A stretch of 14,787 bases of DNA from Bdellovibrionia bacterium (GTDB taxonomy: Bacteria > Bdellovibrionota > UBA1018), in the NCBI GenBank assembly GCA_045805065.1, contig JBJMMA010000202.1:1-14787 (forward strand), written 5' to 3'. Positions 6,001 to 12,000 of this stretch are shown here, in pieces (position 1 is the stretch's first letter; each line of letters opens with the position of its first letter). Made by a program: the position numbers.

Positions 6001-9000
6001 TCTTCCGGATTTACTCCCAGCGCGACAACTGCAGGCTTATGCTCGGGAAGCCATTTCATCCCACAGACCACGGCCAGGAGTGAGGTTATTGCGTCAAAAT
6101 AAATGAGCAAGGCAGTCCCCAAGGACGCGAATACGCTTCCAATGGAAAAGCTGACGATCTGACCCGCGTTATTTCCCGTGCGCAGCCACGCAATCGCTTC
6201 TTTAACCTGGTTTTTTTCCACCATCTCTGTGAGCAAAAGGCGCGCAGGCGAATGAAAGAGATTGTTTCCAAGCTGCGCCAGCATGGCAAAGGCAGCAAGT
6301 AGCAGCACGGATTTAACGGAGGCCATCCCAAAAAGACCCACAGCTGAAAACCCAAACGATACCAGAAGAACTTTCTTCATCCCCAGGCGATCAGAAGCCA
6401 CTCCCCCAAGAAACGCCGCAACAAGCGCCATTGCCTTGGTTAAACCCATAATGAGCGATGCCTCACCGATTGCGACCTGACGCTCAACAAGCAGTACGGG
6501 CAGAAGACTGAGCCCGATAGTACCCACTTTATTGACAAACGAAGTTGCAGTCAGAGGCAGGCTGGCACGGAATGCTTTCATCGTTATTCCAGTTTACTCA
6601 CCGTGCATCAGAAGCCAACTTCCAAACAAAAAACTCTCATTGCACAGCGGCATTTCAATCAAAAACTTTGCGATTTCCTTAAAACGATGTTTTGTTCACG
6701 GAACACTCGTGGATTTCCACGACTACGTCCAATCAGGGACATCCGACAACAGGAGATACAAAGATTGTATGAAACTTTTTAAGAGCAGTCTCATTCTCAG
6801 TATTGCCCTTACTCTTGGCTTATCTAACGCTATGGCTACGCAACATCACCGCAAAGTGAGAGCTGCATTGCCACCCAACAACTTGCACCTCATGGATAAC
6901 CCAAGCCGCGTTCAAAACATCGATGAAAAGACGTTCAACGCCATCATCGATCAGGCTCAGGCCTACTTCACGCCAGTCTTCGCAAAACATAATGCCAAGC
7001 TGACGGTCGTCAGACGCTGGAACGACAGCACAGTCAATGCTTACGCTGAACAACAAGGCAGCAACTGGCTTGTCACGATGTTCGGTGGACTTGCCCGCCG
7101 CCCTGAAATCTCCGCAGACGGATTCGCTCTCGTGATCTGCCATGAAATCGGCCATCACCTCGGTGGTTACGCTTTCATCGACGATGATTGGGCGTCGACC
7201 GAAGGAAACTCTGATTACTTCTCTACCCAAGCTTGCGCTCGCGCTCTCTGGGGCAGACCAAGCCTGGCCAACCACTACGCAATCCGCTACGCCACTCGCC
7301 TGGAGCAGCAAGCTTGCGATGCGGTCTGGAAAGACCAGAACTCCCGCGAAGTTTGCTATCGCTCGATCAATGCCGGTCAATCGCTTGCAAATCTTCTTGC
7401 TGCGATCGGTGGCGAGAAACAGCCTCACATCGAGACTCCGGATCAAACCCAGGTTTCCTCGACCTACACCGAGCACCCTGCTGCTCAGTGCCGTCTGGAC
7501 ACCTACGTTCAAGGTGCTTTGTGCGCAAAGCCATTTGACCTCAACGTGATCCCAGGCCGCGGAAACTCCGCTGGCCAAGACAGCGCTGCTGCTGAGACCG
7601 AATCCATGAAGTATACCTGCTATACTTCCCAAGGATTCCAACTGGGCTTCCGCCCACGTTGCTGGTTCAAGCCTAAGATCGAGAATCCTTTCCACAGACA
7701 GGACTCGACCGAAATGACCCCAGTTCTTTCTCAGAACTAAGCTGTATCGAATCGGCCTGGGATCTGTCTGATGACGGATCTCAGGCCTTTTTGCATCTTA
7801 ACTTCAAGAGGATCCCATCCATGCGCGCAACGTTCTCTCAAATCTTCGTTTTGCTCTTCTCCCTACTCGCTTTGTCGCCACTGCACTCATATGCAGACGA
7901 ACCCGTAAAGCTTGCGATTGAAGTCGATATCCGGGGTGGCTTCGTAGGGTTTGATACTCCTGCGTTTGCTACGGTGCGCGCGGTCATGGCAAGCCTCATT
8001 ATGGACGGAACGCTTGCGCACTGGATCACCACTTCTCGCGGCATGGAAGGTGGCGGAACCTATTGCATGCAGTTTCATCCGGAATTCATCTCTCGCAAGT
8101 CTCGCGTGCTCGCGCAGTTCCAGAACATCCATGTGAACGAAGTTTCGACTGCTTACTCAGTTCGCGAACTTGAGCGATGTGAGATTCCCGCGCTGAAATA
8201 ACGAGCTTTTCGCCTGCGCGAGTTTTCATTGAGTATGCAGTCTTGTTCGAAGGAAATCGACATGACACGAGACTGCTTGGATGGTCTTTGAACTTATCCC
8301 GCGCAATAAGAGCTTATTCAGGAATTCTCGATCCCGATAAAGCGAAGCTACAACCGATCTCTCATGAGCAGACAGTTCTTTGAGACTTTTCCGCTCGGCA
8401 TGGATCGCTCCCACTTTCTTGAGCCTGTCAAAAATCTGATCTGCCGCCACTTTCTGGATCATCACGGTTCTCTGCTCAAGCGGAAGGTCAGTCAGGACAA
8501 AATGAGAGTCTCCAGCAAGTTTTGCAATATCATCCAGAAGCAGCCTAACATCCTTGATTCGATCCAGACTTCCTATCAAAAGCATCGGATCCTTTTCGAT
8601 CACTTGGACTCCGATGCCCCAGTGATTCTTGAACTCAGCCAATTTGGGATCAAGATTCTCTTCAATGGATAAGCCGAGAATTACGGGAAAGGCGCTGATC
8701 ACTTTACCCCTGTCAGTAAAGTGTTTCCGAACCCAATCGGCCTTAGGGTCAAGCTTATTGGGGATCGAGTAGCTCAACACTTGCGGGAAGGAGCCAATCA
8801 CCTTTCCCGGGTTTTCGACACCGTGCTTGGCTAGCCATGAAAAAGTGTCATCGTTGTTTTCAATGGAATAACCGAGAAGCGCCGGGAAGGAATCGATCAG
8901 TTTTCCGACGTTTTGAATTCCTTGTTTTCTGAACCATTCAGCCCGGGGCTCAAGAGTATCTTTGACAGAATGAGTGATCACACGCGGATTGGTACTAAGC

Positions 9001-12000
9001 AATTTTCCAATGTCCTCAACTCCCTGCTTCTTCAGCCAGGCAACTGTTGGCTTGAGATTTTCTTCGACCGACAGGCCCAAGATGGATGGCTGCGAGCTCA
9101 GTGTTTTCGTGAGATCCTGAACTCCTTGCCGCTCAAGCCACTCAGCCGTAGGTTTGAGATTTTCCTCAAGGGAAAGACGTAGCACCGGAGGCCAGGCGTT
9201 GACCAGCTTTCCGACGTCCTTAACTCCTTTGCTCTTGAGCCAGTCCGCTTTGTCTTGGAGATCCTTCAGGGTATGACTTAGAAACTCCGGGTGATCCCCG
9301 ATGAATTCACCGATACTACTGACCTTCAGATCCTTCAGCCATTTTACCTTGGGATCAAGACTTTCCTCAGTGGAACGCCGGGCAACGACAAGTAAGGCCC
9401 GGGTAAGCCTTTCTGAAGTTGTGACTCCCTGTTTCTTGAGCCATTCAATATGATCTTTGAGCTCTTTTGTAGAGGTCCTGCCATCGACCACATCCAGGAT
9501 CTCTTCACGCTCAATGTATGCAAAACCTTCGTCTTTGAGGACCTTGATGAGTTCGTCCGTCTTAACGCTCGAGACGGTAGGGGTTAATTTTTCTCGCAAG
9601 GCGCCGACATAGATCGCGATTTCACGAGGCTTGTTTGGAATTTTCCCTTGGGCCTCGGCAATGTGAGAAAGCAGTTCGTGGATCTTATGATTGCGGTAGA
9701 GATCTGCGATCATCTTTCGTTCGAAAGGATGCAATCTGGCAAACTCTTCCCTCTTGAGTCCGATCGACTTCACATCTTTGAGACTTCTGATCAACTGACT
9801 CGCCGACCCGGTTCGGATCAGGTCCTTGCGTAGGTCAGGAGCCAGCGTTTCGAGATCAAAGTGCGGCTCCTCGGCGGTTTTCGCAATTTTGTCGAGAAGC
9901 AGCCTGAGCCTTAGAACCCTCAGAAGATCTGTTCCAAGAAGCTGCGGAGACTTTTCAATGTCGAGTATTCCAAGTCTCCAATGCTCCTTCAACTCCACGA
10001 GTGTGGGATCAAGATCGCCTTTAATGGAAAGAGCAAGTAGGTCCGGGTAGGCGCTGATCAGCTTTTTAGTACTTTTGAATCCCTGTTGATTTAACCATTG
10101 CACCTTATCTTCCAGGCTGCCGATGGAATCCGCGAAAAGGTCCGGATGGGAGCTCACAAGCTTTCCAGTATCGGTAACTCCCTGTTTTTCAAGCCACGCC
10201 ATTCGTTTGTCGAGATCGCCCTGGATAGGATGAGGGAGAGCGACTGGCAACACTTTGGCAAGCTTTTCAAAGTCGGTCACCCCGTGACTCTGAAGCCACT
10301 TAACATGGTGTTCAACGTATTCGTCGGAGTAAGTCCGATCTACCCTGCTGACAATCCGCTGAACCTGATTGACGGAGAACCCCAGCGATTTGAGGGCCAC
10401 GCGTATGGATAAAACCTCGCGCCCAAAGGAAATCTGAGTGCTCCCTATACCCACGAGAAGGGCAAGAATCAGGATTCGACAGAGTTTTGGCGGGCATCGC
10501 TTCAGAGACATAAGTTCTCGTCTCAATATCGGCAGTTTAAGCGCAATGATTGAACGTAGTTCTCAGAATTTATGCCAGACCGCATTAAACGGCCCCCCAG
10601 GGATTCAGGGGGATATCTTTCCTTCGATCAGAGTCACTGCTTCGCCCGATAGACGGATCGCCTGGATATTGTCAGCGCTTCCTACTCTTTCAAGTTCCCC
10701 AACTCCGGGCCTTCCCATCCAATGGCCTTGCTCCGCAATCAACCGATCTTCCTGAACAAAGCCGTATTTCCAGAGATAAGCGGCCATGCAGCCTGTCGCG
10801 GACCCGGTATAGGGATCTTCAAGCGTTGCAGGGGGCGTTGGAAGACTCCGGGCAAAAGTACGTCCCTTGGGTGTGGCGCCCTCAAGACAGAAATGATGAG
10901 CAAATAAGAAGTCGCCTTCTGATTTCAGTTTCAAATACTTCTCGGGATCCACGTACCTTGCGCGTCTCAGCGCATCGAGGCTTGCCAAAGGAACCATGAG
11001 GATAGGTGTGCCCGTGCTCACGGTCTGGATACGCGCACCTGGTAAGAGATCACTTGGATTTAATCCAAAAATCTCAAGAAGCTCCGTGGACTCATAGGTT
11101 CGCAAAAACCTTGGAGCAAGCTGCGACATGGTAATCCGAGTCCGGTCCGCCTTCACTTCGTATTCAACGGGAATAATGCCAGCAGGCACTTCAAGCGACA
11201 CGCTCCCTTTTGCAGAAGGACTATTAATACGACCGGTGTGAATCAAACTATGGATTGTCGCTATCGTCGGATGTCCCGCAAAAGGCAACTCTTCCTCAGG
11301 AGTAAAGTATCGAGCCCCGAAATCGGCTTTTGTCGAGCTGCGCACAAAAGCCGTTTCAGATAGATTGATCTCTTTTGCAATTCTCTGCATTTGCTCTGCA
11401 GAAAGATGATCCGTGTCGAGAACGACGGCGCACGGATTTCCGCCGAACTTTGTACTGGTAAACGCATCGATCCAAAGAAAAGAGAGTTGAGTCACCGGAC
11501 TACTGTAACATATTCAGACGCGCCGTCCATGCCGCGATCTTGCATCACTCTGACGTTGTGAATCGGAAAGACTTTTACAAACTGCTTTTCGTTCCAATAG
11601 GCCTGCTCCTCCTCAAGAACCGGGTAATCGGTCCGGCTCATTTATATAGCCAAACGCCGACCGCGCCTCAAAAGACGCTGGAGATCATGGTCGAAAATTC
11701 GGCGGAACCGTGGTCAAATCCAGATGGAACGGGATATGCCAATGACATCGTTGTCGCAGCATTTAAAGAAATGGGAGTCGACGTCCGCTTAAAGGTCGTG
11801 CCCTATTCACGGTGTAAAGCCGAGGCAATGGAGGGTAATACCACCGCTTGCGTCAGTATGAGCTGGCTGCCCGAGTTCAAAGGCCGTATCCAACTTGCCT
11901 CAAAAACGCTCATCGTCCTGGATGCGGATGTCTTTGAGAATGTCCACTCCCCTTTGCCAAGCACACCCAACCACAAATGCAAATTACCTGTCGGAACAAG

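Follow-up and report, generated by a model that had tools for sequence, protein, structure and literature searches.

Genomic setting of the mTERF gene

The window analyzed here is the whole of a 14,787-nucleotide contig from a Bdellovibrionia bacterium. At 8226..10511 on its minus strand lies an intact ORF of 761 amino acids plus a stop codon, as an earlier note on this DNA had described. On the evidence of the ORF, Pfam matches and an AF2 model, the whole gene encodes a signal peptide, a first repeat unit (unit A), a linker and a second repeat unit (unit B). An ORF listing extends the frame to a TTG codon (8226..10526, minus strand, 766 amino acids). The ATG at 10511, which yields the 761-residue product, is backed by a relative, P0014, whose N terminus is homologous (MSL.KCPP).

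The contig is bacterial by its gene content, which includes RadD, KaiC and two-component genes. The immediate setting is as ordinary as had been claimed, with RadD, MFS, PhzF and two-component genes as neighbors. RadD is 82% identical at the DNA level to its counterpart in the sister genome, and at 83-85% its relatives carry the names Pseudobdellovibrionaceae, Bdellovibrio or Oligoflexia. The contig is also no outlier in composition: its tetranucleotide distance ranks 52 of 122, which is typical, and the mTERF gene, which lies no further out than the top 10% of compositional windows, is not foreign in composition. Apart from RadD, no synteny was found with G001, G003 or G004, and the insertion point is invisible because the G001 contigs stop inside RadD and inside the PhzF homologue. 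Signs of mobile elements at the locus were sought as tRNAs and flanking long repeats, and neither was present; tblastn with the protein matched no plasmid or phage, and a promoter and terminator scan at the gene gave no signal exceeding that of shuffled sequences.

Four DNA sequencing runs contain the gene, each a small share of it. All come from a single study and are labeled soil metagenome, the only label available for this uncultured member of the Bdellovibrionota, a phylum with predatory members. These runs supply 20 short pieces at 100% identity, and short contigs at that identity bridge both ends of the gene, although the runs possibly are the source samples and hence are not independent. 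Among the listed sequencing runs, no RNA run contains the gene.

Architecture and predicted fold

Residues 1-30 (10422..10511, minus strand) resemble a Sec-type signal peptide, with n-region MSLKRCPPKLCR, h-region ILILALLVGIG and c-region STQISFG, followed by REV. Scored with a heuristic of our own rather than SignalP, the n-region carries four positive and no negative charges, the h-region has a mean hydropathy (h9) of 3.31, and a small-residue site is present at SFG|R. The earlier identification of an N-terminal signal peptide is thereby reproduced, and by the same heuristic the segment has the features of a signal-peptidase-I substrate, namely a charged n-region, an h-region of at least 8 residues and small residues at -1 and -3. 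Only 8.7% of the 1868 long ORFs in the genome reach an h9 of at least 3.0. Cys6 and Cys11 are located ahead of the h-region. A lipoprotein or a Tat substrate was ruled out, as neither a lipobox nor an RR pair is seen when the sequence is read by eye. Export of the protein is likely, as far as its sequence can indicate. For a possible onward route, a GspD-type secretin encoded in the genome exceeds its cut-off.

The remainder of the protein consists of mTERF repeats and associated helical segments. Pfam mTERF (PF02536) matches it in three stretches (E 3.6e-41, 141.5 bits against a cut-off of 23.1), and a six-frame search places two matches within the ORF, at 8634-9446 and 9120-10100; both results reproduce those reported before. 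No NCBIfam family scores above its cut-off. The division into two halves also holds, given that residues 1-373 and 374-761 align by BLASTP at 34% identity over 248 amino acids (E 3e-41), but the units are more exactly delimited as about residues 31-295 and 336-761. Unit A (residues 31-295; 9627..10421, minus strand) has three clear mTERF repeats (72-171) and a tail, tail A (about 180-281). A linker (residues 296-335; 9507..9626, minus strand), modeled with low confidence, joins it to the first part of unit B (residues 336-632; 8616..9506, minus strand), in which a lead-in, GFAYIERE, precedes eight repeats of 33-34 amino acids, for 11 parsed repeats in all. At the DNA level, repeats spaced 102 nucleotides apart fall within the gene. 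Tail B (residues 633-761; 8229..8615, minus strand) comprises a final cap motif that resembles mTERF, ~75 helical amino acids at the end that are specific to the family, and Cys749, the sole cysteine of the mature protein. An HMM built for the tail matches both units, at residues 180-281 and 633-734.

The AF2 model is entirely helical, with a mean pLDDT of 84.2, values above 90 in unit B and values of 46-61 in the linker (blocks 291-320). Foldseek returns MTERF3 (E 1.9e-6) and DNA-bound MTERF1 as the best matches, with probability 1.00. When the predicted model is superposed with VIA-align, residues 386-697 fit DNA-bound MTERF1 with Z 19.1 and rmsd 5.0 over 295 of 324 residues, the range 24-247 fits MTERF4 with Z 12.7-13.2, and Z to MTERF3 is 15.9. 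A model of the tail (pLDDT 95.7) matches MTERF4 in its residues 1-96 (Z 8.0); the rest of that model has no clear structural match, and the last ~75 amino acids of the protein have none that is nucleic-acid-binding. Among structural clusters of the ESM Atlas, plant EMB2219 matches best (TM 0.76), and no PDB chain matches by sequence at E<=0.01. A homodimer prediction with two copies of residues 374-761 scored 0.00, which speaks neither for nor against dimerization. The protein belongs to PF02536 both by sequence HMM and by the tandem-repeat superhelix of its predicted model; it is not an mTERF in the eukaryotic sense of a nuclear-encoded protein imported into mitochondria or plastids.

Relatives, distribution and origin

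An exhaustive search with the protein gives 1513 matches at E<=1e-3, and the best of these, at 48%, 40%, 38% and 43% identity, have the architecture of the query. These results replace the earlier picture of nearest relatives that are eukaryotic and 29-38% identical. The closest relatives (P0007, P0008, P0009, P0014, P0017, P0018, P0026 and others) possess a signal peptide, mTERF repeats of 33-34 amino acids whose number varies among members, the tail and a C-terminal cysteine. The tail, about 110-130 amino acids long, follows the repeats and has the consensus IE.SP.LLG.SL.R...LR..L..IA..AG...F ... L.E......LY. Its HMM matched 36 of 162 proteins, and 28 of these are among the 154 representatives P0002-P0155. 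Besides the query, all but one of the 21 relatives examined (20) have the C-terminal cysteine, and the one without it is a fragment truncated by the end of its contig. The cysteine is a single residue, about 5-34 positions before the C terminus, in an alignment column (alignment A6) with a conservation of at least 90%. Of 24 family proteins scanned, 22 begin with a segment that resembles a signal peptide and has a small-residue site, and a 23rd, P0017, has AIA|S by eye. Members are basic (pI 8.2-9.7), and over 94 repeats basic residues occupy position 3 in 70%, position 12 in 76% and position 32 in 63%. By its sequence the query is a member, since its tail follows the repeats and its lone cysteine is C-terminal.

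Most members have a single unit and 200-500 amino acids, whereas strung units number from 2, as in the query, to 4, as in P0008. The closest relative of unit A is P0014 (43% identity), a fragment that likewise extends beyond the end of that unit, and the closest to unit B is P0007 (48%), in which the counterpart of unit B is a stand-alone gene with its own signal peptide. Neither a signal peptide nor the C-terminal cysteine is present in the internal unit of the query, and the same is true in P0008. In weakly resolved trees of the tails, unit A pairs with P0014, and units A and B are not sisters. Pfam detects no fused domain in the long members, and no nuclease or other partner was found fused to family genes or conserved beside them. 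All members are annotated as "hypothetical protein", and the literature we searched holds no description of the family.

All named members are from Pseudobdellovibrionaceae or Bdellovibrionota MAGs, and the three whose contexts were viewed (P0018, the G136 protein, and those of G087 and G071) have housekeeping genes around them, in genomes that belong to this phylum as well; the label "bacterial" rests on four genomes and six named clusters, most members being on short metagenome contigs. The mTERF gene itself occurs in 1 of 41 relatives and 1 of 75 genomes of the taxonomic family, that is, in no other, and in 4 of 401 genomes of the phylum. Absence from the sister species and from 397 of 401 sampled genomes, as noted before, thus stands, and implies that the proteins are not part of a general predatory toolkit.

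Because the closest relatives already share the signal peptide, the export signal is ancestral to the bacterial family. The query is a member of a small and so far undescribed family of apparently exported bacterial mTERF proteins, not a fresh eukaryotic import. The gene most likely entered this genome horizontally after the split from the sampled relatives, with another family-carrying bacterium as donor; its nearest relative shares no more than 48% identity. The family itself may have arisen from eukaryotes long ago. Among 156 proteins searched (P0002-P0155 with those of G087 and G071), an alignment through three repeats and the cap is obtained for 21, all of them tail-bearing, and a tree with eukaryotic outgroups in a fixed register is therefore impossible. 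A profile of the tail searched against the word-indexed collection recovered four proteins, all known already; candidates were crowded out, so that this result has no bearing on taxonomic range.

Possible roles and comparison with known systems

The explanation that we favor, and hold to be somewhat probable as a whole, is that of a Sec-exported, basic, two-unit mTERF protein from a bacterial family that arrived horizontally and binds nucleic acid outside the cytoplasm. As to function, we infer that an extracytoplasmic nucleic-acid-binding solenoid is the best reading. The protein would leave the cytoplasm through Sec, and then possibly through a type II system. Outside, the solenoid might bind free DNA in the extracellular space, or else the DNA or RNA that prey or neighboring cells contain, via rails of conserved basic residues, much as MTERF1 does around duplex DNA. 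To our knowledge, all characterized mTERFs act within organelles, and such a role would therefore be without precedent. It is a bolder and more doubtful generalization that a secreted mTERF-fold family in Bdellovibrionota, and perhaps in other bacteria, binds DNA or RNA outside the cytoplasm of the producer, with modular units and a cysteine that serves in dimerization or anchoring; TAL-like solenoids that track DNA would then have a counterpart that leaves the cell through Sec. As a further step, bacterial mTERF-like proteins would be sufficiently ancient to inform the ancestry of the eukaryotic organellar mTERFs.

The exported solenoid might instead have acquired a new use as a scaffold in the periplasm or at the surface, where it binds proteins or another polyanion (polysaccharide or lipid head groups, for instance) and not nucleic acid; we regard this as a serious though lesser possibility. 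Helical-repeat proteins of the bacterial envelope usually mediate protein contacts, MTERF4 binds NSUN4 through its C-terminal part (according to PDB titles), the family-specific tail and lone cysteine suggest a partner or covalent link, and the last ~75 residues resemble no nucleic-acid-binding structure. However, the best fold match is to MTERF1 in its DNA-bound form, the family is uniformly basic with conserved basic positions in each repeat, and no conserved neighboring partner gene is seen.

The earlier note had proposed a recent transfer from a eukaryote, with later gain of the export signal. In this scenario, which now appears improbable, a donor such as an alga would have contributed the gene directly, and the product would be an effector on a eukaryotic host, acting for example on organellar gene expression. 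The mTERF family is overwhelmingly eukaryotic in the literature, and a 2026 survey (PMC12977773) places it in animals and plants and describes it as absent in fungi and prokaryotes. The named matches in the word-index search are likewise solely eukaryotic (eukprot; Coffea MTERF5), EMB2219 heads the ESM Atlas clusters, and the gene is missing from every sampled close relative. Yet the relatives at 43-48% already carry the signal peptide, tail and cysteine, and the named ones are all bacterial, three of them amid housekeeping genes. Eukaryote-like proteins reach 42-44% identity through near-identical consensus repeats, and none aligns through the tail. The composition of the gene is ameliorated rather than foreign, and no host association is known beyond the soil label of the runs. 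Injected effectors do not usually carry a Sec signal. An effector-like role, as also suggested before, is no more than a possibility.

It is very improbable that the gene is an artifact of a mis-binned or chimeric contig, or of two adjacent genes fused by assembly error, even though the MAG is split into 262 contigs, of which this one measures just 14.8 kb and shares only RadD in synteny with relatives, and even though P0007 has a unit B counterpart that stands alone as a gene and bears a signal peptide itself. Against an artifact, RadD and the composition of the contig fit the sister genome and the MAG, identical short contigs (possibly from the source samples) bridge both gene ends, the bare internal unit is matched in P0008, and the P0014 fragment also continues past unit A.

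A bacterial family that combines an mTERF fold with an export signal and a C-terminal module of its own is well supported, and contrasts with the survey cited above; even this modest reading corrects the picture of a single recent eukaryotic transfer. The family also bears on the origin of mTERFs, which organelle biologists deem a eukaryotic invention. If the preferred reading of extracellular nucleic-acid binding is correct, these would be the first extracytoplasmic mTERFs. They would also form a new class among secreted repeat proteins that bind DNA or RNA, and might offer programmable binders a new scaffold.

Among known systems, human MTERF1, MTERF3 and MTERF4 belong to the same Pfam family and are basic helical solenoids with repeats of roughly 30 amino acids. 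In the predicted model, unit B fits MTERF1 in its DNA-bound form (Z 19.1) and unit A fits MTERF4 (Z about 13), although identity is only 16-21% in the structural alignments. Unlike the human proteins, the query is bacterial, has a Sec signal where they have a mitochondrial presequence, and carries two units per chain, the family-specific C-terminal ~75 residues and a lone conserved cysteine.

TAL effectors and BurrH are also bacterial superhelical arrays, with helical repeats of about 33-35 amino acids that track DNA. They are secondary structural matches (Z 7-10, rmsd 11-20 A) and differ in repeat fold and sequence family, and membership in the TAL-type repeat family was rejected because Pfam gives no TAL match at E<=0.01. 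TALEs are injected via type III secretion, not exported through Sec.

The plant and algal organellar mTERFs, including EMB2219 and MTERF5 of Coffea (P0005, which is 27% identical over 39% of the query), share the repeat consensus WL...G......K.....P.IL..S.E.NL.P. with the query. As a review describes them (PMC7909791), they are nuclear-encoded, carry transit peptides and work on the DNA or RNA of plastids or mitochondria. In contrast to the query, they have no tail, no C-terminal cysteine and no multi-unit build.

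A tandem mTERF gene among bacterial genes

The 761-amino acid protein is encoded on the minus strand at 8226-10511, in an open frame that extends from 10526 to 8226. The ATG at 10511 is supported as its start because P0014, a fragment among the retrieved relatives (which are named by running number), begins with a homologous MSL.KCPP. An earlier note described an exported protein of two related halves built from mTERF repeats, and this observation as a whole is confirmed. The Pfam mTERF match of 3.6e-41 was recovered (141.5 bits against a cut-off of 23.1, in three stretches), as were both six-frame mTERF matches, and residues 1-373 align to residues 374-761 with 34% identity over 248 amino acids (E 3e-41). 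The likeness between the halves does not stop at the repeats covered by Pfam but continues into a C-terminal "tail". With a repeat HMM, 11 repeats of 33-34 amino acids are detected, three in unit A (residues ~31-295) and eight in unit B (336-761), and a 102-nt periodicity is seen in the DNA of the gene.

The window spans all 14,787 bp of contig C202, and its source genome is a 4.22-Mb metagenome-assembled genome (MAG) of 262 contigs, 94% complete with 1.5% contamination. The contig belongs to this lineage, and the mTERF gene is not chimeric. Its neighbours are bacterial, as previously proposed, and include a KaiC homologue, HisKA, response regulators, RadD, DoxX, MFS, a PhzF-family isomerase and a PAS histidine kinase. 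RadD is an equivalog match (893 bits), and at the DNA level it shares 82% identity with the sister genome G001 and 75% with two genomes of the same family; RadD relatives that are 83-85% identical carry the names Pseudobdellovibrionaceae, Bdellovibrio sp., Bdellovibrionaceae and Oligoflexia, with one bin labelled Methylotenera. The source of the window is an uncultured member of the Bdellovibrionota. By tetranucleotide distance from the remainder of the genome, the contig takes rank 52 among 122 contigs of similar size. The distance of the gene's own 2.3-kb window is equalled or exceeded by 10.4% of random windows, and its GC content is 49.3%, compared with 51.7% for the genome. Four runs of a single study, labelled soil metagenome, yield short contigs with 100% identity. 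Two of these contigs span the gene ends, one (8082-8266) reaching the downstream ORF and the other (10410-10729) reaching PhzF; the runs may be the source samples, and the bridging speaks against a mis-join only.

The plus-strand ORF at 6532-7740 contains many Cys residues and a HEIGHH (HEXXH) zinc-protease motif; a signal-like MKLFKSSLILSIALTLGLSNAMA comes after an internal Met. Its Pfam Peptidase_M48 match is weak (E 0.003, below the cut-off), and a strong hairpin with a T-run follows it at 7754-7787. This ORF probably encodes a secreted metalloprotease, with the 291-amino acid minus-strand ORF at 6820-7695 probably a shadow of it. Neither Pfam nor NCBIfam assigns a family to the 136-amino acid plus-strand ORF at 7791-8201. 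This shorter ORF converges on the mTERF gene and has a signal-peptide-like start (…IFVLLFSLLALSPLHSYA/DEP, the slash marking the site), so the mTERF gene adjoins two other putative exported proteins. Elsewhere in the window (3-2881, minus strand), a HisKA kinase fragment and a response regulator flank the KaiC homologue, which has a double KaiC domain (261.6 bits); in this Bdellovibrionota genome, the three make up a two-component module linked to KaiC.

Relatives, shared tail and distribution

The closest relatives had been taken to be eukaryotic proteins of 29-38% identity, an incomplete picture that is not borne out. A word-indexed search finds five proteins, of which the named ones are eukaryotic. 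Exhaustive phmmer against 1.84 billion representatives detects 1513 proteins at E<=1e-3, of which 539 reach E<=1e-10 and 60 reach E<=1e-30, and its best match, P0007 (449 amino acids), is 48% identical and spans query residues 418-761. P0008 (894 amino acids) is 40% identical, P0009 (501 amino acids) 38%, and P0014 (301 amino acids, on a 1,076-bp contig) 43%, spanning residues 1-289. These four proteins and the query have in common a signal-peptide-like start, a variable repeat number, a lead-in helix (L..(G)L/F....) and the tail pattern IE.SP.LLG.SL.R...LR..L..IA..AG...F....L....R..LI ... L.E......LY.

A tail HMM matches 36 of 162 collected proteins, including 28 of the 154 representatives P0002-P0155. 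A Cys residue lies 5-28 residues before the C-terminus in the query and in 20 of 21 relatives examined, the exception being the truncated P0014, and is also present in the proteins from G087 and G071, two genomes of the same phylum. In the query this residue is Cys749, the sole Cys of the mature protein. Where a protein has several units, as do the query and P0008 with its four tails, only the last unit contains this Cys. Putatively exported mTERF proteins that share the tail and this Cys are here termed the tail-bearing family. Family members have a pI of 8.2-9.7, and three repeat positions are basic in 63-76% of 94 repeats.

The tail-bearing family is bacterial, though rare. Every named cluster is from a Bdellovibrionota MAG. 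P0017, P0164 (cluster P0026), P0168 (cluster P0049), P0171 (cluster P0086) and P0088 bear locus tags of one Pseudobdellovibrionaceae MAG, which thus has at least five paralogues; two of the tags are adjacent (10030, 10035). The longest contig listed for each of clusters P0049, P0086 and P0088 is 21,081 bp, which suggests that these paralogues form a tandem cluster. P0018 is from a different MAG, named "Bdellovibrionota bacterium" at NCBI, and is letter-for-letter the mTERF protein of G136, a further genome of the phylum. The gene neighbours in G136, G087 and G071, named by reading their translations, include an ABC ATPase, metallophosphoesterase-like, formyl-THF cyclo-ligase-like and SerA-like dehydrogenase proteins and an FAD oxidase, and no neighbour is conserved across the three loci. 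The family is found in 4/401 sampled genomes of the phylum, by Pfam or by family alignment, and in 1/75 genomes of the window's own family and 1/41 relatives; plasmids and phages gave no match.

Eukaryotic look-alikes such as P0012, P0013, P0015 and P0003 are 42-44% identical to the query over ~200 amino acids. Their repeats are nearly identical (consensus …NLKPTVEWL..LGL……VVK..AGFPSVLGYSIEA…), so this identity reflects the repeat consensus. Among 156 proteins (P0002-P0155 and those of G087 and G071), 21 align across three repeats and the cap, four of which scored under a stricter threshold and were labelled "other"; all 21 are tail-bearing, and none of the eukaryotic look-alikes aligns in this way. 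A eukaryote-like layout, in which an N-terminal hydrophobic stretch and a PPAWWQGGW-type motif precede near-identical repeat arrays, is seen in P0013, P0020, P0022, P0027, P0036, P0041 and others. A contig of 431,510 bp is listed for P0013 and likewise for P0020.

Origin of the gene

Judged by its sequence, the query gene belongs to a bacterial family, not previously described, of putatively exported mTERF-fold proteins. That 74 sampled genomes of the window's own family lack the gene suggests that it was gained horizontally, and the architecture shared with bacterial proteins points to a bacterial donor; the best relative is 48% identical, and no sampled donor is close. An ancient transfer from eukaryote to bacterium, or the reverse, is possible at the root of the family. 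The earlier note favoured a recent eukaryotic acquisition that gained an export signal. The export signal on a tandem mTERF protein is supported, and the recent, direct eukaryotic source is not, since the shared architecture points to a bacterial donor. Two small trees group unit A with P0014 (93/74 and SH-aLRT 93) and do not place the query's units as sisters, so the two-unit build would be old or a fusion of diverged units, rather than a recent internal duplication.

No synteny with the window was found beyond RadD. In the sister genome, contigs G001:C20 and G001:C29 (loci L028 and L029) end inside RadD and inside the PhzF homologue, and the counterpart of the mTERF locus is therefore unassembled there. 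The mTERF locus has no tRNA and no flanking repeats.

We found no report of bacterial mTERF proteins in the literature covered, which lies outside subscription journals. PMC12977773 describes mTERF genes as absent from fungal and bacterial genomes, and plant mTERF functions are reviewed in PMC7909791. A second set of mTERF-repeat proteins (P0032, P0052, P0058, P0067, P0081, P0132, P0137, P0148 and P0151) has lysine/glutamate-rich N-termini without signal peptides. The ESM Atlas also holds clusters labelled Bacteria with PF02536 in 100% of members; few of these members have a recorded phylum, most often Bacillota, and the clusters are leads only. Both sets sit uneasily with the published absence of mTERFs from prokaryotes.

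Export signal, predicted structure and proposed function

At the N-terminus of the query, four basic residues and no acidic ones precede ILILALLVGIG and STQISFG/REV (the slash marking the predicted cleavage site, after Gly30), and reading its sequence revealed neither a twin-arginine motif nor a lipobox. In a crude scan, a positive n-region, an h-region and a small-residue site are found in 22/24 family proteins. The site of P0017, read by eye, is AIA/S, and P0096 looks like a mis-started fragment. A predicted Sec-type signal is conserved in the tail-bearing family. A GspD-type secretin scores above its cut-off in this genome.

At the level of sequence or model, the protein is a two-unit mTERF superhelix. 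The AF2 model, from a 40-row alignment, is all helical (mean pLDDT 84.2, pTM 0.63), with pLDDT >90 in unit B, 75-87 in unit A and ~43-62 in tail A and the linker. Folded alone, the last 170 residues reach a pLDDT of 95.7. The first 96 of these match MTERF4 (Z 8.0, rmsd 2.3), and the last ~75 have generic helical matches only (Z <=5.3), which is not evidence for a new fold.

We infer that the protein is exported and binds nucleic acid outside the cytoplasm, through rails formed by the basic repeat positions; the tail and its Cys may help it to dimerise or to attach. In the chief alternative, the protein would be a scaffold in the envelope, with a ligand that is not nucleic acid; we found no fused domain and no conserved partner gene that would tell a nucleic-acid binder from a scaffold.

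All significant Foldseek matches in the PDB are mTERFs, led by MTERF3 (E 1.9e-6) and then DNA-bound MTERF1. In VIA-align, model residues 386-697 superimpose on DNA-bound MTERF1 with Z 19.1 (rmsd 5.0, 295/324 residues); Z is 15.9 to MTERF3, and 12.7-13.2 for residues 24-247 against MTERF4. TAL effectors and BurrH come next, with Z 7-10 at an rmsd of at least 11 Å.
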